NCBI GenBank assembly: GCA_038214755.1
Contig: JBBQRQ010000026.1
Coordinates: 1 to 53,007, forward strand
DNA: 53,007 bases
Direction of reading: 5' to 3'
Source: Verrucomicrobiota bacterium
Lineage (GTDB): Bacteria > Verrucomicrobiota > Verrucomicrobiia > Limisphaerales > CANJXF01
A model generated the notes under the pieces. It had not been told where the DNA came from and did no database searches. It saw only the letters and a list, made by a program, of their open reading frames with translations. A program made the position numbers and the translations under genes. Of the stretch, positions 7,320 to 29,491 are shown piece by piece. The first letter of the stretch is position 1. Each line of letters starts with the position of its first letter.

Positions 7320-7703
7320 ATGACTATTAAAAAATCAAAGCCCTTTAAACAATCGCTCGGGCGATTGGGAATTCTGCTTTTGCCCTCACTGAAAATGAAA
7401 GGTGTTTCGCCTCGCGGAAAAACTTACGAGACAGAGGTGCATGAATTTCTCGTCGCCAATTTTAGCGGCTACACTTTGGCTTCAGGAAATATCGCCGGCT
7501 TTTGGAAAGACTCCCGGGGCAAGCAACATTATGGCGAACATCTGGAATATCGGGTGGGCGTCTTGTCCGAAAAAAAAATTCCGATGCTGGAAAATTATAT
7601 TTCGCAATTGGCGGAAGAGATCGGGGAAGAATCTATTTTTTGGGAAACAGGAGAAGATGCCTGGCTCATTTATTCCAGAGGATTCAAGAAAAGAAGGCCG
7701 TAA
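7320..7703 (+). CDS. Hypothetical protein
   Basis: 127-aa ORF with protein-like composition filling the gap. Confidence 0.65.
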   Translation: MTIKKSKPFKQSLGRLGILLLPSLKMKGVSPRGKTYETEVHEFLVANFSGYTLASGNIAGFWKDSRGKQHYGEHLEYRVGVLSEKKIPMLENYISQLAEEIGEESIFWETGEDAWLIYSRGFKKRRP

Positions 7704-7711
7704 TATTTGAC

Positions 7712-7895
7712 GGGTAGCATCTGCCTCCGGCGGGTGCGGCAAGGTAGATTGAATTGTTGGATTGTTGGATTGAGTGCTGCAGGTTCTAAGTTTTAAGCAT
7801 CGAAAATCCAACTTCCACCGATCCAATAATCCACCAATCCATCCATCCATAAATCCAACCCACCTTGCCGCACCCGCCGGAGGCAGATGCTACCC
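7712..7895. repeat. GGGTAGCATCTGCCTC-family inverted-repeat element, copy 1
   Basis: 34-bp perfect arms 7712-7745 / 7862-7895; core of ttggattg / caatcca short repeats. Confidence 0.85.
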
Positions 7896-8120
7896 TGATG
7901 AATCTTGGGAATTTATGGTGGAGTCGATTAACGCGCGAGCGTCGGTGAATTGGCTTTCGGGAACTTGCACGCGAATTCCACCGGAGGTTATAGACGAACC
8001 CAGATCGAGAGTGGAAAGCTCGTTCAGAATCGTCGGCTCAAATCCGGCGGCTTCCAGTTGCGCCGCGATCAAATTTGCTTCGGCGGAATTGAACGTTTTA
8101 AAAACAGTGGCGAAGTCCAT
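7890..8120 (-). CDS. DUF2007 (putative signal-transducing) protein
   Basis: EANLIAAQLEAAG...GGIRVQVPESQ...AR pattern. Confidence 0.8.
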   Translation of the reverse strand: MDFATVFKTFNSAEANLIAAQLEAAGFEPTILNELSTLDLGSSITSGGIRVQVPESQFTDARALIDSTINSQDSSG

Positions 8121-12006: not shown

Positions 12007-12060
12007 AGCGACGGCGCAACGTAGCAAACGGAAAGGGGGTTTAAAGTTTAAAGTTCAACA

Positions 12061-12201
12061 GGGCGTGTTGCCCAACTAGTAAAGGAGCGCGGACGTTCTC
12101 GTCCGCGTGAATGGGGAGAGCCGAGAACGCTGACGTTTTTGCCGTCTTGAAACACGCGGACGAGAACGTCCGCGCTCCTAATTGCTTTGGGCAACGCGCC
12201 C
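12061..12201. repeat. MITE/REP-like palindrome with IS-like outer ends
   Basis: Outer gggcgtgttgcccaa / ttgggcaacgcgccc; inner 26-bp perfect arms 12084-12109 / 12153-12178. Confidence 0.8.
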
Positions 12202-12304
12202 GCCAGATGGCCTGCCTATCCGGTTCGAGTTTGAGCTTTGAACTTGGCTTGGGTGCTACAAAAAAAAGTTGGCTTGGCTGGACAAACATTTTATTGTCGC
12301 GCTG

Positions 12305-13210
12305 ATGTCCGTTCAATTCACGATTCTTGGCAGCGGTTCCGGCGGCAACTGCGCTTATCTGGAGACCGGCGAAGTCCGGCTTCTGATCGACGCTGGATTC
12401 AGCGGGCGCCAAATTCGTCAAAAGCTCGCCGCCATTTCTCGCGCGCCGGAGACGTTGAGCGGCATTCTCATCACGCACGAACATTCCGATCACATCTCCG
12501 GCCTGGTCGGACTCGCCGCGCGATTGAATCTTCCCATTTATTGCAACGGCCAAACTCGTGAAGCGATCGAAGCGCAACTGCAAATTAAAATTCACTGCCA
12601 ACTTTTCGAGACCGGCCAATCGTTTGAAATCGGCGATGTGCGCGTCGATACTTTTTCCGTTCCGCACGACGCGATTGATCCGGTTGGATTTCTTTTGCGA
12701 ACGACTTGCGGACAGATTGGTTTTCTCACTGATCTCGGTCATGTGACGAAATTAATTGTGGAACGCATCCGGCACTGCAACGTGCTCGTGCTGGAAACCA
12801 ATCACGACGTGCAGATGTTGCAGGACGATCCGCGTCGCCCGTGGAGTTTGAAACAACGAATTCTCAGCCGGCACGGCCATCTCTCCAACGAGGCTGCCGC
12901 CGATGTTGCCGAAAAAATTTGTTCGGCGGAACTGCAACATTTGTTTTTGGGACATCTCAGCCGCGATTGCAACACGCCGAAGCTGGCCAATGGCGCGGTC
13001 GATGGCCGGCTGAAAAAAATCGGCGCAAACCACGTTTCCGTTCAAATCACCTCTCAGGAAAATCCCTGCCCGACGTTGCATCTGGAAAATATTTTTTCCG
13101 CCCCAGCGATTCCTGATTCGTTGAGAGAAACGTTTGTGAAAACCTTTTCGGCTTTCTCGCCGGAATCTATTCCGTTGCCCGCGGTTCTCGGTCAGCAGGC
13201 GTTGCTTTAA
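12305..13210 (+). CDS. MBL-fold metallo-hydrolase (YycJ/WalJ-like)
   Basis: LGSGSGGN, THEHSDH, HDA, TDLG, ETNHD, GHLSN, HLSRDCN. Confidence 0.9.
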   Translation: MSVQFTILGSGSGGNCAYLETGEVRLLIDAGFSGRQIRQKLAAISRAPETLSGILITHEHSDHISGLVGLAARLNLPIYCNGQTREAIEAQLQIKIHCQLFETGQSFEIGDVRVDTFSVPHDAIDPVGFLLRTTCGQIGFLTDLGHVTKLIVERIRHCNVLVLETNHDVQMLQDDPRRPWSLKQRILSRHGHLSNEAAADVAEKICSAELQHLFLGHLSRDCNTPKLANGAVDGRLKKIGANHVSVQITSQENPCPTLHLENIFSAPAIPDSLRETFVKTFSAFSPESIPLPAVLGQQALL

Positions 13211-13408: not shown

Positions 13409-14107
13409 ATGCAAAACTTTTATTCAATTCTGGTCGTCGTAATTTTTACCGCAGTAAATGGCAGCGCACAATCGCTCCGGCCTGATCCCGAACAATTGCC
13501 GCCGACAATTCATCCCGAAAAAAAAGTCCACTTCGTCAGCGTCGATCACGCATTTCAACCGGCGAATTCAAATTGGGTTGCGTCGCTGAAAATTCTGACG
13601 GGCGGCGATCACGCGACCGAGCCAGTGGACATTGGCGGGCACGAGGGCGTGAGAGTGATGGGAATCAAGTTCAACACCGCTGACGCGCAGTTTCAAACCT
13701 GGGCCAGCCAGCACGAGATCGATATTCTTCTGCAAATTTTCGGCGACGACGCTTTGCTCGATGAAAAAAGGCAGCCGCGTTATTTCAATTTTCTCACCGG
13801 CACTTTGCCGGAACCGATTGCCGTGGATGGCGGAGAGATTCCCGCGTCGGCCAAAAATAAAAAGTGGAACTGGATGCTGTTCCGCGTTCCAAACGGCTTG
13901 CGTCACATGGATGGAGGACGTCTCGTCGGCACGATTCATCCCAAAGCGCGCGGCGATTCTCCCATCGCCGGGGTTTCAATTTTAAGCGGACAAAATGGCG
14001 GGACGATTCGCCTCGATGGCTTGCATGATTTAAAAGTTCGCTTTGTCGCGTTCGGCGAAAAAGGCGCGTTCGGGGAACCGAAGCAGATCAATATTTTTTC
14101 AGAGTAA
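13409..14107 (+). CDS. Secreted hypothetical protein
   Basis: Signal-peptide-like N-terminus, 232 aa. Confidence 0.7.
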   Translation: MQNFYSILVVVIFTAVNGSAQSLRPDPEQLPPTIHPEKKVHFVSVDHAFQPANSNWVASLKILTGGDHATEPVDIGGHEGVRVMGIKFNTADAQFQTWASQHEIDILLQIFGDDALLDEKRQPRYFNFLTGTLPEPIAVDGGEIPASAKNKKWNWMLFRVPNGLRHMDGGRLVGTIHPKARGDSPIAGVSILSGQNGGTIRLDGLHDLKVRFVAFGEKGAFGEPKQINIFSE

Positions 14108-14154
14108 ATTTGTGGCGCATCGAGGAAATTTTGAAACAAGACGAACAAAGATAT

Positions 14155-14312
14155 GGGGTAGCATCTGCCTCCGGCGGGTGCGGCTGGAGAAACCATTCGA
14201 TGTTCGTTGTTCATTGTTCGATGTTTAAAATCAACATCGAACATCGAACATCGAACATTGAATGCCGAATACCGAATGCGTCTTCGCACCCGCCGGAGGC
14301 AGATGCTACCCC
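14155..14312. repeat. GGGTAGCATCTGCCTC-family element, copy 3
   Basis: Arms 14155-14182 / 14285-14312; core of inverted tcgatgt / acatcga heptamers. Confidence 0.85.
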
Positions 14313-14369
14313 GCTGAAAAAATAAAAATTCATTTCCGTTAAAAATAAAAATCCTCAACCCGAAATCTT

Positions 14370-15347
14370 ATGCAACGAAAAGTCCAAGTCTTCATCGTCA
14401 TTGTCGTCCTCGCCCTCGCCGGAGTAGCGGTCTATACGTTCAATCAATCCCGAAAAAAAGATGCGCAGTTGAAAGCATTGACGGAATCGCTCGAAACCAA
14501 AACTACCGCCGCTCAGAGCAGCGCGGAGGATGGAGACCGTGCCGCCGAACGAACGCGTCAGATCGAGGAACGCGCGGCGCGCGCTAAAAATTCTCCGAGC
14601 GCTAACATTCCATCCGCCACTTCCGCGCCCAGCTCCCTCGCGCAAACCAACGCAGGCAGCGCCCTGTCCAGCATGACGCAGGATCCGCAAATGCGGAAAA
14701 CTTTGCGCGACCAACAAAAAATGGGGATGACGATGATTTACGGCCAACTGGCGAAACAATTGAAACTCACCACCAACCAAACCGATCAACTCAACAACTT
14801 TCTCGCCGACCATGTGATGGATAATGTGGATCAAATCACCAAGGGGCTTGCCGGAGGAAAAAGCGCGGAAGAAATGGATAAGCTTTTTACCCAGCAGGAT
14901 TTGGCGCTGCAGGAGAAAATCGAAGGATTGCTCGGAGCGGATGGTCTGGCGAAATACCAGGATTACACCCGCAACCTCGCCAGCACCCTCACCTCGGAAC
15001 AATTCAAAGGGATGCTGACGGGAGACAAGGCGGCGAAGGATGAACACGCCCGGCAACTCGCCGATGCGATGCGTGAAGAAACCGAATATACTTTGCGCAC
15101 GGCAGGTCTCGATCCAAATTTCCAGACCGTTCCAATGCTCAATTTTCGCAACATTGCCTCCGAAGAAGAAGCCAACAAGAACCTCAAACTGCTCGATGAT
15201 ATTTACAGTCGCGTTTCACTTCGCGCCGGGGCTTTTTTGAGTCCGGAGGAAGTAGCGAAGTTCGGGACCTTTCGCACAAATGCGATCAACATGAATCGCA
15301 TGGCCATCACCATGAATCGAAAAATGATGGCACCGAACATGAAGTAA
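14370..15347 (+). CDS. Membrane-anchored helical hypothetical protein
   Basis: N-terminal TM, coiled-coil, all-alpha composition. Confidence 0.75.
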   Translation: MQRKVQVFIVIVVLALAGVAVYTFNQSRKKDAQLKALTESLETKTTAAQSSAEDGDRAAERTRQIEERAARAKNSPSANIPSATSAPSSLAQTNAGSALSSMTQDPQMRKTLRDQQKMGMTMIYGQLAKQLKLTTNQTDQLNNFLADHVMDNVDQITKGLAGGKSAEEMDKLFTQQDLALQEKIEGLLGADGLAKYQDYTRNLASTLTSEQFKGMLTGDKAAKDEHARQLADAMREETEYTLRTAGLDPNFQTVPMLNFRNIASEEEANKNLKLLDDIYSRVSLRAGAFLSPEEVAKFGTFRTNAINMNRMAITMNRKMMAPNMK

Positions 15348-15419
15348 GAACGTCAGGGGATGGCGAGGTCCGCACGCATATTCCCGAACGAGGTCCAGTT
15401 CGTTTTGCATCCGTTGCAG

Positions 15420-15479
15420 TTACAATTTCAAATCCGCATCCGTCACCGCGCCGAGTGAGGCAGTGGTGACGTGGCTCGC
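15420..15479 (-). pseudogene. ilvD: Orphan ilvD 3' end (last 19 codons plus stop)
   Basis: [19 protein letters not shown] vs [19 protein letters not shown] in the full gene. Confidence 0.9.
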
Positions 15480-15504
15480 AGTTCGGCAGAAATCGAGAGG
15501 GTCA

Positions 15505-15720
15505 CTCTCGCGACCATCAGTTCTGCTCGCGTCGATGCGGCATCGAACACTCCGAGAAATTTTTCCTTTTGACTGGCGACGATTTTTTTGGATCAAGGTT
15601 TTTCTTTGCAGACAGCCCTGACTGCGCTTCAGTGAGAAGAAGTCGTTCACCGGTCATCAATTTGATCAGATCTATCTGAATGTTCTTTCGGTCCACCATA
15701 GCGGTATTCTTCACGAAAAA
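15505..15720 (-). pseudogene. Frameshifted copy of the 65-aa gene at 18923-19120, plus the last codons of its upstream partner
   Basis: MVDRKNIQIDLIKLMTGERLL... then indels; DNA similarity extends to ttcttcacgaaaa (cf. 19128-19140). Confidence 0.85.
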
Positions 15721-15784
15721 CAGTTTGGTGTGACTGATGGAATCCCGCTCGCAATGCCTTTTCAACTTTGCAAAGCTCGCGGTC

Positions 15785-16135
15785 ATGTCCGCTGGACAAC
15801 TCTGGCTTTTTCCGCCGCCCAAACCGCTCGTCGAACGGTTCGGGAAGGAGTTCTTTCATCAATTGCCTGAGCGACCCGGCGTGTATCTCATGTGCGGCGA
15901 GCGGGAAGGCGTGCTTTACGTGGGGAGCGCGAAGAATTTGAAGAAGCGGCTCTCGGCCTATCGTGTGTCCAATCCCGAACGGTTTCCACGGCGGATCATC
16001 CGTCTGTTGAACGAAGTCCGCCGCATCGAGTTTGATATCTGCGCGAGCGAAGCCACCGCGCGCGACCGCGAGGAACAACTCATCTGCACGCTGCTGCCCA
16101 AGTTCAATCGCGCCGGGAAAGTTTGGCCGAGATAA
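15785..16135 (+). CDS. Stand-alone GIY-YIG nuclease (UvrC N-terminal-like)
   Basis: LPERPGVYLM...LYVGSAKNLKKRL..Y, E-A--RE, PKFN. Confidence 0.88.
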   Translation: MSAGQLWLFPPPKPLVERFGKEFFHQLPERPGVYLMCGEREGVLYVGSAKNLKKRLSAYRVSNPERFPRRIIRLLNEVRRIEFDICASEATARDREEQLICTLLPKFNRAGKVWPR

Positions 16136-16493
16136 CAATGGAATGTTGTAACCCTCGTGTTTCGCAACCCTGGGCTGAGTTGTGAAATCGCGTTGGAACT
16201 CCGGGAATGGAGCGCGCCTCTTTGAGCCGCAGAATTCAGGCCGTGTTGAATTCTTCTTCGTGCTCATCCACTTGGGCGAAGCTACCGCGGGTCGCCGACT
16301 TGCGCTCCTGATTGGCCTCAACGGGGCAATGTCAATCAGCCCGACGTTCGAGCGGCTTGCCGCGCCGAACCGAAACAAAAGCGGAAGCGACTGCTTGACG
16401 AATCAAAAAATGAAACCAACGGGTTTGTACCACTACCTCACCACACGGTTTGTGCTTGTTTCCGCAGGTATATCTCTGATATAAACGCCGAGT

Positions 16494-18269
16494 GTGAATA
16501 CGCATTGCCTGCAACTGGCCGCTGGTCTTTTGGTATTATTTATCTTCACCGCTTCGTCCGCAGTGCGCTACGTGGACTTGAACAGCGCTAATCCGCTGCC
16601 GCCTTATACGGATTGGATTACGGCTGCGACCAACATTCAGGATGCCGTCGACGCTGCCGACTCCGGCGACCAAATCCTCGTGACCAATGGAGTTTATTAT
16701 ACTGGTGGGAGAGTGGTTTCCGGCATTCTGTCGAATCGCGTCGCAGTGGCGAAGACGGTGAATGTTCAAAGCGTGAACGGTCCAGCGGTGACATTGATTC
16801 AAGGAAAATATCGTCCTTTTCCGGTGCGTTGTGTTTATCTGTCCGGCGGAGCAACGCTTATGGGTTTCACGCTCACCAATGGAGGGACGGGATTCTCTGG
16901 AAACGAAGTTAATGACCAAAGCGGTGGTGGAGTGTGGTGTGAATCATCCGGTGAGATCGTGTCTAATTGTGTGCTGATTAGCAACAACGCCGCGTATTTT
17001 GGTGGAGGAGCATACGGGGGCACACTGAACAACTGTGTGCTAATGGTTAACTCCGCACAGTTTGGCGGCGGAGGCTGCTTTAGCACGATGAACTGCTGTA
17101 CGCTGACCAGCAACTCAGCCAACATCTCCTTCCAAGGTATCGGCGGAGGTTCCTATATCAGCACGCTCAGCAACTGCACTTTGACGGGCAATTGGGCTTT
17201 CGACTTTGGCGGCGGCTCGTACGGTGGGACTCTTAACAACTGCAAACTGAGAAACAACTCTGCCCAAATTGGCGGCGGTTCCAATTATGGCCTCCTCAAC
17301 AACTGTAATCTCACAGGCAACTCGGCTTCCTATGAAGGCGGCGGTTGTTATGGTGCCGGGCTGAATGAATGCACGGTGACAGGCAACTCCGCAGGGAGAG
17401 GTGGCGGCTGCTCTTCCAGTACGCTGAATAACTGCATGTTGAGTTGGAATTTAGCCGGCACGGGCGGCGGTTCCTGGAAGAGCTCCATGAACAACTGCAC
17501 ATTGACAGGCAACTCGGCTTCCTCGGTGGGTGGCGGGGACTGGGGCGGCATGCTAATGAACTGCACCATCGCCGAGAACTCAGCTAACCGAGGAGGTGGT
17601 TCCTTTAGCTCGACGCTCGACAACTGCGTCGTCTGGGACAACCATGCTAACAGCAATTTAAACTACGCCTTCGGACAACTCCGATATAGTTGCACCATAC
17701 CACTCGCCTCCGGCACTGGCAATATTACCAACGAGCCACTTTTCATTGATCGTGCTAGCGGTAACCTACGCCTCCAATCCAACTCCCCATGCATCAACGC
17801 TGGGAAAAATGCTTATGCACCAGTTGGGCCGGACTTGGACGGCAACGCTCGCATCGCTGGCGGTACGGTGGACATCGGTGCGTATGAATTCCAAAACCCT
17901 TCCTCAATGCTCTCTTACGTTTGGGCGCAGCGATACGGTCTCCCCACGAGCGGTTTGGCGGATTACGCCGACTCGGACGGTGACGGTATGAACAATTGGC
18001 AAGAGTGGCGAGCCGATACGATTCCCACAAACAATTTGTCCCTGCTGGAAATGTTATTTCCGTCAGGCACCGTGTCCGCTGTCGTGGTCACATGGCGAAG
18101 CGTGAGCGGCGTGAATTATTTTCTCGACCGCAGCAGCAATCTTGGAACACAGCCATCTTTCCTGACGCTCAAGACCAACATCTCCGGGCAGTCCGGCACG
18201 ACAACTTACATTGACACCAACGCCGTCGGCACCGGGCAGTTTTTCTACCGCGTGGGCGTGCAGGAGTAG
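16494..18269 (+). CDS. Secreted beta-helix repeat protein with choice-of-anchor Q domain
   Basis: Signal peptide, [10 protein letters not shown], about 10 [12 protein letters not shown] repeats, [11 protein letters not shown]...DLDGNAR...VDIGAYE. Confidence 0.85.
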
Positions 18270-18374
18270 AGCGGTTTTGGAGTGCCCCGGTTTGTCGCGC
18301 TTTTTCGCAGCGCAAATTGACGCGCTGCTGCCGGGCGACAAGCCGCCGAGATTGATGGTCAGCGCGCTCCAAAT

Positions 18375-18449
18375 TTACGTCACGAACTCAAACGCCAAAT
18401 CCTTCAAATACTCCGTCTCCTGGATCATTGGAATTATTGGATCTGCCAT
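18375..18449 (-). pseudogene. Orphan C-terminal fragment resembling RlmI/YccW-type methyltransferase
   Basis: ADPIIPMIQETEYLKDLAFEFVT* resembles the PDHP....PETEYLKG terminal motif. Confidence 0.55.
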
Positions 18450-18524
18450 GCAGAGAGGGCGAGTTCTGCTCGTCCAATGCCATTGCCGCATTCACAGCTC
18501 TTCAACAGTTCAATTCCTTGTGGG

Positions 18525-18662
18525 CTACAACTCCAACTCCGTATCCGCATCAGTCACCGTGCCGAGGGACGCGTGGTGACGTGGCTGGCGTATTTCGCCA
18601 ACACGCCGCGAATGTAAAGGGGCGGCAACGGTTTCCACGCTTTCTTGCGCGCGGTTATTTCG
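18525..18662 (-). pseudogene. ilvD: Degenerate orphan ilvD 3' end (frameshifted)
   Basis: [30 protein letters not shown] / 1-nt deletion / ASLGTVTDADTELEL*. Confidence 0.9.
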
Positions 18663-18669
18663 CTCGTGT

Positions 18670-18873
18670 TCAAAATGGCGCGGGTATCCCGTAAAGCCGT
18701 TGAAAGAGTTGGCGCTTTAATTCCTGCGGCGCAAGTCCGGTTGGCAGCGAAGCAAGGACGACCGCTCGCGCGGCATCGAACATCTGTGTGCCCATGACAA
18801 AGCGTTCTGAACCGGAACGGCTCATCAGCTTTTGCCGAACAAGTTCGGCGATCTCTGGTGATGTGTCATTCAT
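18670..18873 (-). CDS. Small hypothetical protein (antitoxin-like)
   Basis: MNDTSPEI...RSGSERFVMG..MFDAAR; a type I recall seeing downstream of nucleotidyltransferase genes. Confidence 0.7.
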   Translation of the reverse strand: MNDTSPEIAELVRQKLMSRSGSERFVMGTQMFDAARAVVLASLPTGLAPQELKRQLFQRLYGIPAPF

Positions 18874-18922
18874 GCGAACATTCCTGGAGCAGTTCGTAGT
18901 TCGGCAGGATTGAGTTTGTCAC

Positions 18923-19120
18923 TCACGCGGCCATCAGTTCGGCTCGCGCCAATGCGGCATCGAACACGCCCAGAAGTTTTTCCTTTTGACTCGCGACGGG
19001 TTTCTTCGGATCAAGTTTCTTTTCCAGAGACAGCCCTGACCGCGATTCGGTAAGGCGAAGAAGTCGTTCACCACCCATCAATTTGATCAGGTCAATCTGA
19101 ATGTTCTTGCGGTCAACCAT
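18923..19120 (-). CDS. 65-aa hypothetical protein
   Basis: Intact ORF 4 bp after its partner; decayed paralog at 15505-15700. Confidence 0.75.
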   Translation of the reverse strand: MVDRKNIQIDLIKLMGGERLLRLTESRSGLSLEKKLDPKKPVASQKEKLLGVFDAALARAELMAA

Positions 19121-19124
19121 GGCG

Positions 19125-19493
19125 TTATTCTTCACGAAAACCGTAAGATTGCAACATGCGGTTCAGGTTTTCCGGTGAAGCATTTCCAAATTCCGCATGA
19201 GCGGCTTGCGCCGCGTTTTCAAAATCACCTTCGTTAAATTCCATGACGCTTTGTGGCGGACGTTGGCTCGCAACTGTCGCCGCTTCAAGAATTTCGTGGT
19301 AAAGCGAGATAGACACTTCTCGCTCGTTCAACGCCCCGCTGATAATCAAATGAAATTTCTGACCAACAATTCTGGTTTGCGCGAGGGCTTCCCTTTCCAG
19401 CGCGTCCAACATTGGCGTGTTGGTGAACTCAATGTTGGTGATAACGAACCCGCCGCGCAACCGGAGGTTTTTAAATGCTGCCACGTCAATCAT
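19125..19493 (-). CDS. Hypothetical protein with HExxE motif (possible zincin-like)
   Basis: ISLYHEILEAA in an IrrE/ImmA-like context. Confidence 0.7.
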   Translation of the reverse strand: MIDVAAFKNLRLRGGFVITNIEFTNTPMLDALEREALAQTRIVGQKFHLIISGALNEREVSISLYHEILEAATVASQRPPQSVMEFNEGDFENAAQAAHAEFGNASPENLNRMLQSYGFREE

Positions 19494-19509
19494 CGCTCGA
19501 TTACTTTGC

Positions 19510-20049
19510 TTACAACTTCAAATCCGCATCCGTCACCGCGCCGAGTGACGCGGTGGTGACGTGGCTTGCGTACTTCGCCAGAACGCCGCGGGTGTAACGC
19601 GGCTTCATCGGTTTCCACGATTTTTTGCGCGCGGCCATTTCCTTTGCGGAAATTTCCAAAGTCAGTTCGCGCTTCTCCGCATCAATTAAAATTCTGTCGC
19701 CATTTTTCACCAGCGCGAGCGCGCCGCCGACGTAGGCTTCGGGCGTGATGTGGCCGACAACGAATCCGTGTGTGCCGCCGGAGAAACGTCCGTCGGTGAT
19801 GAGCGCGACTTCTTTGCCGAGTCCTTTGCCCATGATGGCGCTGGTTGGGCCGAGCATCTCTCTCATGCCGGGTCCGCCTTTCGGCCCTTCGTAACGAATC
19901 ACCACGACATCGCCCGCCTTGATTCCGCCGTCGAGAATTTCCTGCATCGCGAGTTCTTCGGAATTGAACACGCGCGCGGTGCCTTCAAAACGCATTCCTT
20001 CTTTGCCGGTGATTTTCGCCACGGAACCTTCCGGCGCGAGATTTCCGCC
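19510..20049 (-). pseudogene. ilvD: Orphan ilvD 3' third (about 180 codons, open frame, no 5' part)
   Basis: [17 protein letters not shown]...[15 protein letters not shown]...TDGRFSGG...TDADLKL*; 89-bp identity 19919-20007 with 24884-24972. Confidence 0.95.
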
Positions 20050-20287
20050 AACGTGGTTCAACTTGGGGAAAATTTTTCAAAGTCGGACTGGCGGTAAAAA
20101 TTTCTGGGAACTCAGTCGAATGATTAAATCGCAATCCGTCTCTCCGTTCAATCAAAACTCGGTTCAACCACGAATGGACACGAATCAACACGAATTCGCT
20201 TAACGCAAAGGCGCGGAGGCGCAAAGGCAACGCAGCGTGCGCACCCATCTTCCTCTGCCAAAGCAGCCGGTTCTGAGAGGCCTTTGG

Positions 20288-23200
20288 CTACGGCGTCACT
20301 GCTCGGTAGAACTGTTTCGGCTGCGCGTTGATCAGGTTGGTGATGGTGATTGAGCCTTCCACTGGAATTGTCGAAGTGGCCATCGAATTCCAATTGATGA
20401 GATTGGTTGAAACTTGAACGACGTAGTTGCTTCCGACCAAGCCACGCATGTCAAACTGGAACGCTCCGTTGAGAACGCGCGGATTTGATAAGACCGGCGC
20501 AGAACCTGCCAGGAAGCTGAAATCCCCAATCACGAATTCTGAGGCATCAGTTCCTCCGCTGTTCAGTTTGACGACCAATTGCCCAGCTTGGCCTGCGTAA
20601 TTGCTCACAGACATCGTTGCCGTCTGAAAGTTTGTTCCGGTGAAACTGTCGGCGCGGAAACTCATCAGCAAGTTGTCATTAAATGTTGCCGTCAGCCAGT
20701 CTCCCGGCCCGGACTCCGTACACAGGAATTTAAAAGTGAGATATTGAGCATCCAGTGGAATCACAAGATCAATCGCGGCAGATAGGCCATCGCCATCTGC
20801 TCCCGCACCGGATTGGGGGCTACCTGATTTATTGATTAGAGGATTTGCATTTGAGGGTTTAGTCAGGGCTACAGAGTATTGAAGCTGATTTCCAATCCAA
20901 TACAAAGGCCATGTGACTACGCCCCCGACAGTCTCCAAGCCATACCAAATAAGTTCAGGTCCATCGGTGAATACCCCCAACATCCCTTGATATAGCGGCG
21001 CGGGCGGCGGAGTCCACCGTTGAGGCTGTGGGCGCGATTCGAAATTGGGCAACAGGAATGAATAGTAAAAGCCTTGCGAAGATGCGGCGTTGACTATCGT
21101 GTTGTGGTAAAAATCATGCACTCCACTGTGGTTGAAATTGACAGGCAGACCACCGCTCGGCGCTGCCCCACTAATCGAACCGCCTGCGGCTGCTGGCGGT
21201 GCGGTGCTGGTGCCATAGTAGTTGTCCACCCATTTAACTCTGTCAGAAGGCAGATATCTGTGGAACAGCCACTGATCAACAGAAGGCGCTGCGAGCGGGG
21301 CATCGAGTATTGTGAATTGCTCCACGTTCCAGCCGCGCAAGTCAAACACTGCGTAAGCATTTACCAGACTGCCTAGACTGTGTCCAATGAACTGGAGCTT
21401 TTTGTCGTACGATGCCCCGAGAATTCCAGGCGACTTCAATTGTCTTGCTAAGGCAGAACCATGATTGCGCGTGAAGCGGGTCGAAGTTAACAGATTTAGT
21501 TTGAACGCCTCCTGCCAGTAATATCGGATGATATTGACCCGTTGCCCAGAAGCGTTCGCTGGCAATCCTGCCAAAACACACCTGTTGCTAATTTCTTGCC
21601 CCATGTCGATTACCCATTGAGGTAAAGCTGGGGATAGCACGTCCGCTGGTTGCCAGCCGTGCGTAATCACGACTGTCGGTAGACTCGGGTCAATCGTGCC
21701 ATAAACCGTGCATTGGCCCGGAAGCGGTTGAGTGGCGGGCGGCGTCAAGGGTGAAACCGTCAGCAGCGCACTCGAACTGGTGACTATTCCCGCTGCGTTG
21801 GCAACGGCAACGGCGTAGTTCCCGGCTTGGAGAGTGGAAACATTTCGTAAAACCAACTGCGGCGACGTTTCACCGTAAATTGGCCTGCCCTCGCGTTTCC
21901 ACTGATAGCCGAACGGACCTGTGCCGCCGACCGTTACGCTAAAGCTCACGGTGTCACCTTGCGTGGCATTTCGGTTTTGAGGGTGTGCCTGAATCACCGG
22001 CAAAGTGGCGCCACTTCCCGTCACCATTACGCGCGAGGCAGAAACGCCCTTGTCGTTTGTAATGTCGCTTTGGCCCGCCCGATTGTCGGCGTCGGCAAAG
22101 ATGCCCACGTAATATAATCCCTGCGACGTTGTGCTAGGAATCGTGATAGTGCCTGAAAAATCGTAGTAGTTGCCCCAAGGGATTGCGGGACTCGAAACGT
22201 CCAGCGGAGACAGCGGCGGGTCGGCAAGCGTCAGATTCGTGTCGAGCGACAATCGCAGGCGAGCAAGCGTGGCGACGCAGTTTGCCGTGCCACGGTTTCG
22301 GATTCGGAAATTGACCGCAAACGAAGCGCCAGCAGGAACAGACGACGGGCTGAAGGTCACATTTTCAACAATCAAATCCGCCTGATTCAACGGCAGCGTT
22401 TGGAACGTCATGTCGTTGCCATAACTCGTGCCCTGCGAGTTCTGGGCGACGATGCGATAGTGGAAAAGCGTGTTCGGCGCAAGACTTCCCAAGTCAAAGC
22501 CAATGTTTTGCGGCGTTGTGCCGAAGTTTCCGGAGAGTGTAGTGCTTCCATACCCAACCGTTGTGCCATATTGGAAATTTGCGGTTGTGCTGTAGCCGTG
22601 CGGATTAAGACTCCCATTCAAGCGTGCGGAATTGACGCCAACTGAACTGGCAGCCAGACTCATCACTGTCGGCACGGCTGCACCGTAAACTGCCGTGATG
22701 GTATGGTTCGCATCCATTGTGACGCTTGCAGTCGTGGAGGTTGTTAAGTCAGCGCCATTCTTCTGCCATTTTTGGAAGACGTTTCCACTCGCTGTAGAGG
22801 GAGCATTGAACGAAACCGTTGCATTGTCATTGAATGTGCGGGTGAACGTGGTTGTGCCGCCAAAGTTGTTGTGATTGTCCGGTTGATTGGCCGTGATGTT
22901 CACACCGCTATTGGGGTTTGATGACGCAACGGTTAGCGTTCGTGTCACGGGCGGCGCAGGCACATACACGGCTGTAAGCGTGTAACCCGCGTTCATGGAA
23001 AAGTTGACGGTTGTGCTAAAGCTGAAATCAGAACCATTGCGCTGCCATTTCTGAAAATTGTTTCCGCCAGCAGTGAGAGGAGCAATCAAGGTAATTGACG
23101 TGCCAGAATTGAAGGTGCGACTAAACGAGGTTGTCCCGTCAGCCCGCCCCAACGTGTCGTTCGGACCAACATATACATAAACTCCACTGTTCGGGTTCGA

Positions 23201-24094
23201 GGACTGGATGTTCAAGGTGTAAACCGTAGGCGGAGAGGTATACACCGCAGTAATCGTGTGGTTCGCATCCATCGTAACGGACGCGGTCGTGGAAGTCGTC
23301 AGGTCAACGCCATTCTTTTGCCATTTCTGGAAGTTGTTTCCACCGGCAGTTGCGGGCGCATTGAAAGACACGGTTGCGTTTATATTGAACGTCCGGGAGA
23401 AGGTCGTTGTGCCTCCGAAGTTATTATTGTTATCGGGCTGATTCCCGGAAATGCTGACGCCACTATTCGGATTTGACGAGCTCACCGTTAACGTGCGCGT
23501 AACTGGCGGAGGTGCGGCATACACGGCCGTCAACGTGTAGGCAGCAGACATGGAAAAATTGACGGTTGTGCTGAAACTGAAATCCGATCCATTGCGTTGC
23601 CATTTTTGGAAATTGTTTCCTCCCGCTGTTAAAGGCGCGATTAACGTGATGGATGTTCCCAAATCGAAAATCCGGCTGAATGCAGTTGTGCCATCCGCGC
23701 GGCCTAAAATGTCGTTGGGACCTACATAAATATAGGCACCGCTGCTTGGATTGGAGGAAGCTAAGTTGAGGGTCAGTATTTGTTTCAATCCATTCTCGGT
23801 GACCCAGCCATCAACGCCAGTATCGAAATTGATATTGAACCAAGTGTAGGAAGTTCCATTTAGCGACGCCACAGTCGGGCCTCCAATCACTGTTCCCTGG
23901 CTGCCCGTGCTCTGGTTTCCTAAAATCGTTGGTGAAGCTGCAGCTTGCCGCACATTTACTTGGCCAGTTGAACTGCTTGCGCGGATTCGGTCGCCAACAC
24001 TTATCGCCAATGTCTCCGATTGGCCGAACCAAATTGCCAGACAACAAAAAAAGATGCTGGAATATTTACTTACTGCTGCTTGGTTTGTTTTCAT
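20288..24094 (-). CDS. Large secreted protein: SH3-like, 4 bacterial-repeat domains, FN3, CARDB, Ig, alpha/beta hydrolase, C-terminal FYR domain
   Basis: Signal peptide; FQKWQ-NG repeats in A-B-A-B order; VITHGW, GHSLG nucleophile elbow, LDAP, NHSGVH. Confidence 0.8.
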   Translation of the reverse strand: MKTNQAAVSKYSSIFFCCLAIWFGQSETLAISVGDRIRASSSTGQVNVRQAAASPTILGNQSTGSQGTVIGGPTVASLNGTSYTWFNINFDTGVDGWVTENGLKQILTLNLASSNPSSGAYIYVGPNDILGRADGTTAFSRIFDLGTSITLIAPLTAGGNNFQKWQRNGSDFSFSTTVNFSMSAAYTLTAVYAAPPPVTRTLTVSSSNPNSGVSISGNQPDNNNNFGGTTTFSRTFNINATVSFNAPATAGGNNFQKWQKNGVDLTTSTTASVTMDANHTITAVYTSPPTVYTLNIQSSNPNSGVYVYVGPNDTLGRADGTTSFSRTFNSGTSITLIAPLTAGGNNFQKWQRNGSDFSFSTTVNFSMNAGYTLTAVYVPAPPVTRTLTVASSNPNSGVNITANQPDNHNNFGGTTTFTRTFNDNATVSFNAPSTASGNVFQKWQKNGADLTTSTTASVTMDANHTITAVYGAAVPTVMSLAASSVGVNSARLNGSLNPHGYSTTANFQYGTTVGYGSTTLSGNFGTTPQNIGFDLGSLAPNTLFHYRIVAQNSQGTSYGNDMTFQTLPLNQADLIVENVTFSPSSVPAGASFAVNFRIRNRGTANCVATLARLRLSLDTNLTLADPPLSPLDVSSPAIPWGNYYDFSGTITIPSTTSQGLYYVGIFADADNRAGQSDITNDKGVSASRVMVTGSGATLPVIQAHPQNRNATQGDTVSFSVTVGGTGPFGYQWKREGRPIYGETSPQLVLRNVSTLQAGNYAVAVANAAGIVTSSSALLTVSPLTPPATQPLPGQCTVYGTIDPSLPTVVITHGWQPADVLSPALPQWVIDMGQEISNRCVLAGLPANASGQRVNIIRYYWQEAFKLNLLTSTRFTRNHGSALARQLKSPGILGASYDKKLQFIGHSLGSLVNAYAVFDLRGWNVEQFTILDAPLAAPSVDQWLFHRYLPSDRVKWVDNYYGTSTAPPAAAGGSISGAAPSGGLPVNFNHSGVHDFYHNTIVNAASSQGFYYSFLLPNFESRPQPQRWTPPPAPLYQGMLGVFTDGPELIWYGLETVGGVVTWPLYWIGNQLQYSVALTKPSNANPLINKSGSPQSGAGADGDGLSAAIDLVIPLDAQYLTFKFLCTESGPGDWLTATFNDNLLMSFRADSFTGTNFQTATMSVSNYAGQAGQLVVKLNSGGTDASEFVIGDFSFLAGSAPVLSNPRVLNGAFQFDMRGLVGSNYVVQVSTNLINWNSMATSTIPVEGSITITNLINAQPKQFYRAVTP

Positions 24095-24176
24095 GGGGGT
24101 TCTTTTTCGGTGTTTCCAAGTGACCGCTTGCAACTATGCAAATCGCGGCGAAACCGTCAAGGTTTTTTACATGATA

Positions 24177-24194
24177 TTTCCCATATGTGGGAAA
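24177..24194. promoter_or_regulatory. Palindromic operator candidate
   Basis: TTTCCCA-TATG-TGGGAAA between the divergent hydrolase and XRE genes. Confidence 0.55.
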
Positions 24195-24216
24195 GGCGGC
24201 AGGACACACTGCCGTC

Positions 24217-24426
24217 ATGGCAGCGTCCATGCAAAAGCAACTTGGTCAATACCTGCGAAAACGGCGCGGGGAGATGACTTTGCCTGCTTTTGCTCGCAAG
24301 ATTGGGATTTCATCCTCCTCGTTGCATCGGATGGAAATGGGCGATCAAAATGTTACGCTTACAACTCTGGAGCGCCTTTTGAAACGGCTCAAATGCAGTG
24401 CGGCTGACGTTTTTAATGTGAAGTAA
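24217..24426 (+). CDS. XRE-family HTH regulator
   Basis: LRKRRGEMT...FARKIGISSSSLHRMEMGDQNVTLTTL. Confidence 0.88.
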   Translation: MAASMQKQLGQYLRKRRGEMTLPAFARKIGISSSSLHRMEMGDQNVTLTTLERLLKRLKCSAADVFNVK

Positions 24427-24474
24427 ACGCGGAATTGCGGTCTGCGGATTCGGCGAGAAACGCCCGCGCTTGCT

Positions 24475-26175
24475 CTACAACTTCAAATCCGCATCTGTCA
24501 CAGCCCCAAATGAAGCGCTCGTGACGTGGGCGGCGTATTTCGCCAGGACACCGCGGGTGTAACGGGGCGGCAACGGTTTCCACGATTTTTTTCGCGACGC
24601 CATTTCCTTCGCGGAAATTTCCAAAGTCAATTCGCGCTTCTCGGCGTCGATGATGATTTTGTCGCCGTCTTTGACGAGTGCGAGCGGGCCGCCGAGATAC
24701 GCCTCAGGCGTGATGTGGCCGACGACGAATCCGTGCGTGCCGCCGGAGAAACGTCCGTCGGTGATGAGCGCGACTTCTTTGCCCAGACCTTTGCCCATGA
24801 TGGCGCTGGTCGGGCCGAGCATTTCGCGCATACCGGGTCCGCCTTTCGGCCCTTCGTAACGAATCACCACGACGTCGCGCGCTTTGATTCCGCCGTCGAG
24901 AATTTCCTGCATCGCGAGTTCTTCGGAATTGAACACGCGCGCGGTGCCTTCAAAACGCATTCCTTCTTTGCCAGAAATTTTTCCAACCGCGCCGCCGCTG
25001 GCGAGGTTGCCGTAGAAGATGACCAGATGGCTGTCCTTCTTGATCGGATTGTCGAGCGGACGAATGATCGTTTGCTTCGCGGGATATGGCGCAACGTTCT
25101 TCAAAGTTTCCACCATCGTTTCGCCGGTGACGGTGAGGCAATCGCCGTGGAGCAATCCGGCGTCGAGCAACATTTTCATGAGCGGACGAATGCCGCCAAT
25201 CGCGACGAGTTCGGACATGAGATGTTTTCCGCTCGGCTTCAAATCGGCGAGAACGGGGACGCGTTTTCCAATCTTCGTGAAATCATCAATCGTGAGTTTC
25301 ACGCCAGCGGAATGGGCAATCGCGAGCAAATGCAAAACGGCATTGGTCGAACCGCCGAGCGCGATGACGACGGTGATGGAGTTTTCAAATGCTTTGCGCG
25401 TCATGATGTCGAGCGGGCGAATTCCCTTTTGCAAAAGATTCACGACGGCGGCTCCGGCACGTTGGCAATCTTCCTTCTTGGCTTTGGACATGGCGGTTTG
25501 CGCGGAGCTGTTCGGCAGACTCATGCCGAGCGCTTCAATCGCGCTGGCCATTGTGTTCGCGGTGTACATTCCGCCGCACGAACCGGGGCCGGGAATCGCG
25601 CAGGATTCCACATCGAAAAGTTGTTTGTCGCTGATCTTGCCCGCTGCGTGTTGGCCGACCGCTTCGAAAACAGAAACGACGTCGAGTTTGCGCGGATCGC
25701 CGGTGATACAGCCGGGAAGAATCGTTCCGCCATAAACAAACACTGCGGCGCGATTCAATCGAGCAATCGCCATCATCGCGCCCGGCATATTTTTGTCGCA
25801 ACCACCAATTGCGACGAAGCCGTCCATCCCTTGGCAGCCGACCACGGTTTCAATGGAGTCCGCAATCACTTCGCGCGAGACGAGGGAGTATTTCATTCCT
25901 TCGCTGCCCATCGAGATGCCATCGGAAATCGTGATCGTGTTGAAAATAATCGCTTTGCCACCGGCTTTGTTGGCGCCCGCTTCAGCTTCAAGCGCGAGTT
26001 TGTCGATGTGCATGTTGCACGGCGTGACCATGCTCCAAGTTGACGCGATGCCGATGATCGGTTTTTTGAAATCTTCTGTTTTAAAACCGACGGCATACAA
26101 CATGGCGCGGCTCGGCGCGCGTTCCGCGCCGTCCACGACAATGCTGGAATAAGGACGCAAAGAATTCTTTTTCAT
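24475..26175 (-). CDS. ilvD: Dihydroxy-acid dehydratase
   Basis: [43 protein letters not shown]. Confidence 0.97.
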
Positions 26176-29199: not shown

Positions 29200-29237
29200 A
29201 TGGGTGAAAAAGAAATGCAACTAAATGGTTCGATGCT

Positions 29238-29428
29238 CGCCCTCACCCCGGCCCTCTCCCCCGAGGAGAGGGAGAAGTGTTGAACATCAATCGAAAATCT
29301 ACGTTGGCCGGTTTCAGTTTCCGCTTTTTCTTCATTAACGAAAAGCGGGCCAAGACAAGAAACGTTCCCATTACTCAAACGCGGCGAATACATCCCCCTC
29401 TCCTGGGGGAGAGGGCTGGGGTGAGGGC
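29238..29428. repeat. REP-like element (ccctcaccccggccctctcc family)
   Basis: gccctcaccccggccctctccc ... gggagagggctggggtgagggc. Confidence 0.8.
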
Positions 29429-29491
29429 GAACGTCATTCCCATGCGATGATTCGCCCACTGCGGCTCTGCTAATTTCCCATTTTATATTTT

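Follow-up and report, generated by a model that had tools for sequence, protein, structure and literature searches.

Introduction

Restriction-modification systems have been described between direct repeats of their target, 30-420 bp long, with no mobility genes; such insertion with long target duplication sometimes overlaps the 3' end of a gene and is found mostly in competent species, the repeats are highly identical, double-strand breakage by the restriction enzyme itself is proposed and the mechanism is given as unknown (Furuta, Abe & Kobayashi 2010, PMC2853133). Here we describe a stretch of 53,007 nucleotides (nt) from a soil/sediment Verrucomicrobiota bacterium (the window; GenBank assembly GCA_038214755.1, contig JBBQRQ010000026.1) in which ilvD, the gene for dihydroxy-acid dehydratase, is followed by three partial copies of its own 3' end with distinct cargo genes between them, and a genome in which repeats of this kind recur behind many other genes. 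The explanation that we favour, with a probability of roughly 0.6, is insertion of DNA that is anchored by homology, needs no recombinase of its own and displaces the old end of the gene.

The movement of chromosomal toxin-antitoxin and defence modules without transposases or integrases is poorly explained, and several known processes bear on it. Homology-facilitated illegitimate recombination in natural transformation was reportedly described by de Vries & Wackernagel in 2002 and by Prudhomme et al. in 2002, and Nobusato et al. 2000 (Gene 259:99) is cited for insertion with long target duplication. Campbell-type insertion-duplication is brought about with non-replicating laboratory plasmids that carry a gene fragment. 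Toxin-antitoxin cassettes are common in chromosomal integrons, and islands that bear an integrase occupy the 3' ends of genes and tRNAs, as do the cis-mobilisable and integrative and conjugative elements (CIME/ICE) of Streptococcus thermophilus at fda and e14 at icd.

Results

Three further ilvD 3' ends lie behind the intact gene

The window is contig C26 of a 5.1-Mb metagenome bin of 175 contigs (labelled G000 among the compared genomes). It had previously been interpreted from its letters and open reading frames (ORFs) alone, and self-comparison confirmed the central claim of that sequence-only reading: three partial copies of the ilvD 3' end, of about 540, 130 and 72 nt, lie on the same strand as the intact gene and shorten with distance from it, the stop codons of intact ilvD and fragments A, B and C being TAG, TAA, TAG and TAA. 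The cargo is therefore flanked by direct repeats of more than 30 bp built of target sequence. The gene and its fragments are listed here, the fragments as delimited by self-comparison and alignment.

24475-26175, minus strand: intact ilvD (dihydroxy-acid dehydratase, 566 amino acids (aa), stop TAG), with both Pfam ILVD_EDD domains and the NCBIfam ilvD model above cut-off
20062-20287, minus strand: non-coding spacer separating the unit 1 cargo and fragment A (from the sequence)
19510-20049 (ORF 19510-20061), minus strand: fragment A, ilvD nt ~1150-1701, open frame, stop TAA
18531-18669 (aligned 18531-18661), minus strand: fragment B, ilvD nt ~1566-1701, with a one-base deletion (frameshift), stop TAG
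15420-15491, minus strand: fragment C, the final ~72 nt of ilvD, stop TAA

These three fragments are far above chance, since the next-best ilvD matches in the window are just 13-20 nt long at E >= 0.26. Fragment A is 88.9% identical to intact ilvD over 512 nt and 90% identical in protein over 178 aa (ilvD aa 389-566). Its ORF of 183 aa matches PF24877 (ILV_EDD_C) at E = 4e-71; the domain is complete and open, and the ORF has a possible TTG start of its own. Fragment B begins 8 nt past the stop of a small cargo gene, p67, and is 79.5% identical to intact ilvD and 83% to fragment A. Fragment C starts at about nt 1630 of ilvD, is 89% identical to fragment A (74 nt) and 81.5% to intact ilvD (54 nt), and is followed by native-looking downstream flank. 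It had earlier been placed at 15420-15479 (60 bp); its presence stood, and its extent was revised to the ~72 nt listed.

The copies resemble diverged working alleles

The differences between intact ilvD and fragment A fall at first, second and third codon positions in the numbers 13, 4 and 39. When 31 pairs of copies from the genome were pooled, the same tendency was seen: 591 differences in 6033 aligned coding sites (mean divergence 9.8%) were distributed 114/78/399, so that 67.5% were at third positions, and 20 of the 31 pairs were free of insertions and deletions (indels). Several long fragments are still open in the frame of the gene, namely ilvD fragment A (183 aa), the fragment at the C44 locus (197 aa) and one of thrS (145 aa). 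Copying in place followed by drift would be expected to put about half of the differences at third positions and to leave some indels. From the third-position bias and the scarcity of indels, the divergence is therefore largely older than the loss of function. By this bias, by the mean divergence and by the mosaics seen against outgroups, the repeats are not near-identical duplicates of the resident target. The copies are probably diverged working alleles, drawn from different lineages of the working gene, and not decayed in-situ duplicates; this bears out the earlier view that they are alleles and not an assembly duplicate.

Intact ilvD and fragment A appear to form a reciprocal mosaic

The sites at which intact ilvD and fragment A differ were scored against the closest relative, G003. 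Over nt 1150-1566 of ilvD there are 57 such sites; G003 agrees with the intact copy at most of these and with fragment A at about 10. Over nt 1578-1701 there are 21, and G003 agrees with fragment A at 13 and with the intact copy at 4. Identities follow the same course: intact ilvD is 94.5% and 89.5% identical to G003 in two upstream stretches (to nt ~1570) and 82.2% over nt 1575-1701, and fragment A is 88.6% and 81.9% identical in two upstream stretches and then 91.5%. The last ~125 nt of intact ilvD look like a replaced, foreign allele, and the two copies have the look of reciprocal chimeras with a switch near nt 1570. One reciprocal crossover at about that point, between a G003-like resident and an incoming allele, would predict exactly the mosaic observed: the gene would retain its body and acquire a new tail, and the fragment would combine the body of the incoming allele with the old tail. 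The old end thus appears to have been pushed downstream, as the sequence-only reading had proposed.

Fragment A is also layered in its divergence from the intact gene, being ~48% diverged over nt 1150-1203, identical over nt 1204-1292, 11% diverged over nt 1293-1566 and 18.5% over nt 1578-1701. The fragment A of G007, a genome of the same genus, has the same divergent 5' edge and ~120 nt of flank, and is of the intact-like type from a much earlier point; the part of the spacer that adjoins fragment A (20047-20167) is common to the window and G007. For the C44 locus, comparison with five outgroups gave matches mostly to the fragment, and not to the gene, in the final ~250 nt.

Gene-end repeats recur across the genome

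In a whole-genome self-comparison classified against ORF ends, 145 local direct-repeat pairs were kept from 251. A pair was taken as 3'-anchored when one copy ended no more than 15 nt from the stop of an ORF of 150 aa or longer and its partner lay downstream. There were 36 such pairs, in 34 genes; random shifting, tried 200 times, gave 3.0 as the mean and at most 8, and the wrong-way (mirror-image) control gave 5 pairs against 2.6 expected. A 5'-anchored class held 25 pairs in 23 genes, against 10.8 expected (maximum 19). The anchor genes include thrS, gyrB, transketolase, thiC, pyruvate carboxylase, a molybdopterin oxidoreductase and ilvD, all of them conserved housekeeping genes.

The junctions of 24 pairs were inspected by eye. 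In most, both copies stop within ~10 nt of the stop codon; the exceptions are the C10 pair, which extends ~22 nt beyond the stop, and the second C160 pair, whose row was mis-delimited. The insert begins right behind the stop of the gene, and the fragment begins from a few to ~30 nt past the last inserted gene. No motif common to the fragment starts was seen by eye in these pairs, no attC model being run. A site-specific att core was considered and rejected: the 90-nt identical block of the ilvD copies is internal to fragment A, with ~55 nt of highly diverged ilvD before it, and no motif is shared between loci.

An array like that of ilvD lies at thrS (C42:18200-29500, locus L074, and C42:38405-39319). 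Its order is a TIR-domain (CAP12/Pycsar-type) protein, a PIN gene, a Gp49/antidote pair, the 145-aa thrS tail, further cargo and another thrS tail. Pieces from inside thrS, 94-257 nt long, are interspersed among these parts, and an inverted copy of the final ~900 nt, 90% identical, lies 18 kb away. The relatives G002, G003 and G007 likewise have several thrS pieces. As an example at a 5' end, the first ~27 codons of a DUF58-like gene in a Verrucomicrobiota bin (L033:6882-7700) are duplicated upstream (MIPREILKKIRPIEIRTNRIV... versus MIPREILKKIRQIEIRTNRII...), and by eye a RelE/ParE-like pair lies between the copies on the opposite strand.

The inserts are rich in addiction-type genes

Short inserts were scanned with Pfam: 21 gaps of 350-1070 nt at 20 loci, holding 36 ORFs. 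Families that we interpret as toxin-antitoxin or addiction-type were found in 13 of the 21 gaps; in 7 of the 13 the Pfam name states toxin, antitoxin or PIN outright. The families are PemK; ParE with Unstab_antitox; PIN, once with a sub-cut-off Phd/YefM; HicA with HicB; DUF433 with DUF5615/PIN_10; DUF4258 with DUF2283; DUF4160 with DUF2442; and DUF6932. The DUF pairs among them we take to be toxin-antitoxin pairs. Two small adjacent genes of recognised toxin or antitoxin families were found at loci other than ilvD, and many inserts, at 350-950 nt, have space for just one such pair.

Larger gaps were also scanned, and secreted proteins are part of their cargo. At thiC (C69:22000-26812, locus L076) a DNA methylase, an XRE-type helix-turn-helix (HTH) gene and a 184-aa gene lie between 405-nt copies of the thiC 3' end, which are 89.6% identical and differ at 1/2/39 sites by codon position; the contig ends within a gene copy. 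The thrS gaps hold a TIR protein with PIN and HigB/antidote-like (Gp49/antidote) genes among several fragments, and the transketolase gap an XRE gene and large proteins. Addiction-type cargo, both toxin-antitoxin and restriction-modification, is over-represented in the inserts. The phenomenon is broader than first described, with 34 genes affected at their 3' ends, toxin-antitoxin and restriction-modification cargo, and a link to insertion with long target duplication.

Each interval behind ilvD holds different cargo

The genes between the ilvD ends form three units.

24187-24426, plus strand: unit 1, XRE-family HTH gene of 79 aa, directly after the ilvD stop and on the opposite strand to it (HTH_31/HTH_3)
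20288-24133, minus strand: unit 1, gene for a probable secreted protein of 1281 aa (Ig-like, CARDB and Flg_new domains)
19125-19493, minus strand: unit 2, 122-aa gene with an HEILE motif (p122; no Pfam or NCBIfam family)
18923-19135, minus strand: unit 2, 70-aa gene (p70; no family)
18670-18873, minus strand: unit 2, 67-aa gene (p67; no family)
16494-18269, plus strand: unit 3, gene for a choice-of-anchor Q domain protein of 591 aa (NF041518, 1.4e-11)
15737-16135, plus strand: unit 3, GIY-YIG nuclease-domain gene of 132 aa (PF01541, 1.8e-8)
15492-15719 (match 15476-15719), minus strand: unit 3, decayed p70 copy with its ~30-nt downstream spacer, fused to fragment C (nucleotide self-match)

The sequence-only reading had described distinct cargo in each interval, and so it is, with two sizes corrected: the large protein has 1281 and not 1268 aa, and the small gene of unit 2 has 70 and not 65. 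That reading had called the large protein a secreted hydrolase. A probable secreted protein it is, but no hidden Markov model (HMM) supported the label 'hydrolase'; a GHSLG lipase-like motif was spotted only by eye in the translation. Its gene contains an internal tandem repeat of 518 nt (22686-23203 / 23241-23758, 73.6% identical) encoding modules of ~185 aa.

The XRE gene has weak, sub-cut-off matches to HipB/PezA-type antitoxins. The ORFs of 122, 70 and 67 aa match no Pfam or NCBIfam family; p122/p70 and p67 are putative type II toxin-antitoxin genes of no recognised family, whose pairing is visible by context only. The decayed p70 copy of unit 3 matches 18894-19140 at 83% over 251 nt with 11 gap positions, and tblastn matches it in two frames. 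The choice-of-anchor Q protein has paralogues on contigs C98 and C9, and its gene a 21-codon periodic repeat at 17089-17518. The GIY-YIG protein resembles the N-terminus of UvrC/Cho in the NCBIfam scan. Homing by this nuclease was rejected as the driver of the array, the gene being present in one unit only and absent at most other loci.

Elsewhere in the window a family of palindromic repeats of ~40-50 nt, resembling repetitive extragenic palindromes or miniature inverted-repeat transposable elements (REP/MITE-like), occurs at 14155-14312, 12041-12200, 29222-29276 and 29393-29432. It has very many copies in the genome and genus (hundreds of matches; depth 1396 in the bin 14000-14433), and gives rise to spurious ORFs (e.g. 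12041-12742) and to the inverted repeat at 14155-14312.

No recombinase accompanies the array

A profile search of contig C26 found no match to PF00589 or PF00239, and hence no IntI-type recombinase adjoins the array; nor is there an integrase, resolvase, transposase or recombinase family among the scanned ORFs of the window. The earlier statement that the array lacks an integrase therefore holds. A recombinase acting in trans, which it had been suggested to look for, was sought in the whole genome: five tyrosine recombinases and one large serine recombinase are encoded, all on other contigs. Furthermore, none of the 130 ORFs (36 + 94) scanned in the inserts and flanks of 30 other loci is an integrase, resolvase, recombinase or transposase. 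At five ilvD loci of relatives and in four cargo gaps no integrase-like ORF was seen by eye, these having had no HMM library scan. In L166:3459-3800 an ORF of 114 aa that by eye resembles an IS200/RAYT-type Y1 transposase lies between ilvD and its 3' fragment. A diversity-generating retroelement was considered and rejected: the housekeeping genes concerned number dozens, and the scanned ORFs included no reverse transcriptase, no dedicated search being made.

The genome encodes a Ku homologue (C15:62621-63166, PF02735, E = 2.7e-47; the control genomes matched in 1 of 14 cases) together with ComEC and DprA. These are circumstantial support for DNA uptake and end joining.

Related ilvD loci share junctions and differ in cargo

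The locus was compared with 40 genomes of the same order and with 80 ilvD loci of other species. Many of the 40 genomes have extra ilvD pieces at either end of the gene, and contigs often break at ilvD. The cargo does vary between relatives, a comparison that had been suggested from the sequence alone. By blastn, window 19512-20167 is 82.5% identical to 7407-8034 of locus L031, and window 19988-20137 also matches L031 8639-8792.

Homologues of p67 lie directly before an ilvD fragment in G007 (98.5% aa identity), in G034 (83.6%) and also in L160. G000, G007 (which has a 66-nt deletion) and L160 share one junction between p67 and the fragment; in G034 it lies ~20 nt earlier. The usual partner of p67 is a nucleotidyltransferase-like gene of ~180 aa (L025, L160, L033, L034), which is absent from the window and from the G007 array; p67 and this partner occur with an ilvD fragment in G034 and L160, and the two also stand together in unrelated surroundings in one Verrucomicrobiota and one Pyrinomonadaceae bin. 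A search for loci with p67 only gave 4 loci, 0 of them with an ilvD fragment. A p70 homologue (83% aa) lies immediately before an ilvD fragment in G013 (L030), and a p70-like match (86% nt) lies behind intact ilvD in G003 (L013). In L174 the pair of 122-aa and 70-aa genes is followed directly by an ilvD fragment, and in L175, an 866-kb contig whose name suggests long reads, an antitoxin-like and ParE-like pair (by eye) is followed by one. The XRE gene has a homologue (87% aa) in G005, 2.2 kb from an ilvD 5' fragment.

The G007 array shares with the window the order fragment A, p67-fragment junction and GIY-YIG gene (89% aa), but where the window has its XRE, 1281-aa and choice-of-anchor Q genes, G007 carries different cargo, namely a module of methylase type and other genes. 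A single fixed old duplication is therefore ruled out as the source of this arrangement. That distal units are older and proximal ones newer fits these data. The array had been called time-ordered; the shortening and decay of the fragments with distance, and the order shared with G007 around different cargo, fit that description but do not prove it.

Same-orientation pieces of the ilvD 5' end, covering aa ~60-160 or 3-113, are stacked upstream of ilvD in G005 (C126, C178 and C83; L022-L024) and in G034 (C27 and C161; L026, L027), the mirror of the 3' arrays.

The joints are present in sequence reads

Read-level data were taken from the Logan contigs and unitigs of one public run (X1), probably the source sample, in which 97% of sampled words were found. 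Unitigs cover 14287-15456, 15429-19546, 19519-19801 and 19978-24766 with 0 mismatches at ~21-24x; with mismatch-free unitigs at even depth, each joint between unique cargo and ilvD is therefore present in the reads. The unitigs break only inside stretches common to the ilvD copies, and the depth over ilvD-like stretches, up to 55 against ~21, points to the presence in the sample of related ilvD sequences. Through the 90-nt identical block (19919-20007 / 24884-24972) an alternative path can be drawn, consisting of a cassette-free chromosome and a circle of 4,965 bp carrying unit 1. Such a circle, if real, would be the excised form predicted by homology-anchored insertion.

Apparent joints at 14177-14313, and skips from 14263 to 24755 and from 14310 to 20166, were rejected as repeat noise, their sides being 22-28 nt within the palindromic repeat (depth 1396).

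Discussion

How the cassettes may be acquired

In the explanation we favour, the incoming DNA would come from a related bacterium, with cargo lying behind a diverged 3' end of ilvD. The first joint would be made by homologous recombination of this end with the resident one, leaving ilvD whole with a new tail and the old tail shifted downstream as a fragment. The second joint, from the end of the cargo to the interior of ilvD, would be illegitimate; it could be pre-formed by closure of a circle, which then integrates by a single Campbell-type crossover, or it could arise by end joining at a break. Repeated additions would stack cassettes behind ilvD, and the same process may act at dozens of other conserved genes in the genome. 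The repeats would always end at a stop codon because only events that reach the terminus of the gene leave it working, and addiction-type cargo may be over-represented because it resists loss through recombination between the flanking repeats. From the pattern as a whole we infer three things: the recombination route, that the new end is the proximal one, and that addiction modules stabilise the inserts. The common p67 junction favours a cassette that travels with its piece of the gene, and the three p70 junctions described below favour joints made afresh or later trimming; both may operate.

Several observations weigh against this explanation. The reading of intact ilvD and fragment A as reciprocal chimeras depends on a single close outgroup, G003, and the ilvD end of G003 itself has a history of cassettes. 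Upstream of the final ~250 nt, the C44 locus is patchy and shows no clean single switch. At C28, where homology to G001 ends at the stop codon and does not resume, it is the gene copy that is nearer to relatives (G001 100% versus 97.8% for the fragment; G003 94.7% versus 91.6%); these copies differ at 3 sites only, and the result runs opposite to that expected if the new end is on the gene. The third-position bias could also follow if the end was duplicated in place and ordinary allelic recombination later overwrote that of the gene. The joint between p70 and the fragment falls at a different point of ilvD in each of three genomes (~nt 1642, 1615 and 1455), and a fixed cassette moving as a unit therefore fails to explain all cases. 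The fragments are sometimes nearest to the ilvD end of their own host (G034 81%, L175 79%) and sometimes to those of other genomes. The Logan contigs of the one run showed neither a circular form nor an empty site nor a read spanning a joint. Finally, of 61 ilvD loci from other species in which the 3' end is complete and 1 kb of flank or more is present, only 3 carry a fragment downstream, and upstream fragments occur at only 2 of 75; short fragments may have escaped these counts. The remaining 58 of the 61 lack a downstream fragment, but the sequence behind their ilvD shows no synteny with the window. The habit is thus mainly one of this order.

Other explanations

In the main rival reading, which is possible but on our estimate unlikely, the repeats arose in place, as in insertion with long target duplication, with break and repair copying the resident end and allelic recombination later overwriting the end of the gene. 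Restriction-modification inserts of this type, with target repeats of 30-420 bp and no mobility genes, are known (PMC2853133). Some of the present pairs are 95-99% identical (C28 96.8%, C14 96%, C103 95% and C41 98.8%), and the position of the C28 gene copy nearer to relatives fits such an origin. Against it, the third-position share of 67.5% and the 20 of 31 pairs without indels would require later allele replacement at most loci, the p67-fragment junction is common across genera and families, yet the fragments differ from the gene ends of their hosts, and the ~48% diverged 5' edge of fragment A, shared with G007, is left unexplained. A single old tandem duplication of the ilvD end, fixed in order and then decayed, would account for the fragment A edge, p67-fragment junction and GIY-YIG gene that G000 and G007 share in order; it is nonetheless highly improbable, as the genes between these landmarks are not the same in the two, further relatives have different cargo or none, the three fragments are unlike in length and in their nearest alleles, and the 34 other anchored genes are not explained by it.

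An assembly artefact, whether ilvD ends of co-occurring strains strung together or unit 1 with fragment A as a separate 4,965-bp circle, is improbable. The bin is a metagenome bin of 175 contigs, depth rises to 55 against ~21 at the ilvD-like stretches where the unitigs break, and the 90-nt block allows the circular path; yet every unique-to-repeat junction is in the reads at ~21-24x, though probably from the same sample, and the same architecture and specific junctions recur in independent bins (G007, G034, G013, G027, L160, L174), including an 866-kb contig, which argues against a chimera. Tandem accretion of integrase-dependent islands at an att site in the ilvD 3' end, in the manner of CIME, with integrases lost or acting in trans, we regard as distinctly improbable. 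A regenerated target with a displaced 3' fragment is the usual signature of integrative islands, and five tyrosine recombinases and one large serine recombinase are present on other contigs. The fragment starts vary, however (~nt 1150, 1566 and 1630 here; 1455, 1548 and 1615 in other genomes), no core or motif is common to the 24 junction pairs, at least 34 different genes serve as anchors, many inserts of 350-950 nt have only the size of a toxin-antitoxin pair, and 0 of 130 ORFs is a recombinase.

Significance

The earlier interpretation of the locus was largely right in spirit, in its alleles, homology, displaced end and lack of an integrase; its mechanism is unproven and the phenomenon is broader. 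A single genome contains ~34 natural cases at 3' ends, besides ~23 candidates at 5' ends and several arrays of more than one layer. The event is recorded in the flanking repeats, and homology-anchored insertion stabilised by addiction is a mechanism that can be tested. Any genome can be scanned for its signature, in which the end of a gene recurs a few hundred bases downstream with mostly synonymous differences, and annotators should be warned that 'pseudogene' tails of this kind are scars of gene gain and not decay of paralogues. More tentatively, and with less than even confidence, we suggest that this lineage has a general cassette system of RecA type, free of integrases, in which a gene end is the 'attachment site', a single crossover brings in each cassette, the newest is stacked first and addiction stabilises the whole; if this is true, it would be a main route by which chromosomal toxin-antitoxin genes spread without transposases or integrases.

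Comparison with known systems

The array resembles integrase-borne islands at gene 3' ends in that the target is regenerated, its 3' end is displaced and tandem stacking is possible; it differs from them in having no integrase, no constant core, fragments of variable length and many unrelated target genes. The description 'integron-like', given from the sequence alone, is good as an analogy: as in integrons, small and often promoter-less cassettes lie in one orientation at a fixed site, each ending in a repeat. It goes no further, since there is no IntI, the repeats are pieces of housekeeping genes (attC sites were not searched for) and each array is tied to its own gene.

With homology-facilitated illegitimate recombination the cassettes have in common a single homologous anchor, an illegitimate joint at the other end and no recombinase of the element; the events reported for that process usually delete recipient DNA beside the anchor and leave no duplicated gene end. 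Campbell-type integration predicts one intact gene and a truncated copy when the fragment includes the terminus, as well as reciprocal chimeras, but it is a laboratory tool. We found no description in the literature of a natural, genome-wide class of cassettes that uses it, nor of toxin-antitoxin cassettes bracketed by gene-end alleles.

Insertion with long target duplication differs from what is seen here in four respects: in the present genome the cargo is mostly toxin-antitoxin pairs and unrelated genes, the repeats are allele-like and not near-identical copies of the target, up to three layers are stacked at one gene, and no fewer than 34 genes of one genome are involved. It is alike in placing addiction genes between long direct repeats derived from the target, without a mobility gene, and the thiC locus on C69, with its methylase and HTH genes between 405-nt repeats, fits the description directly.

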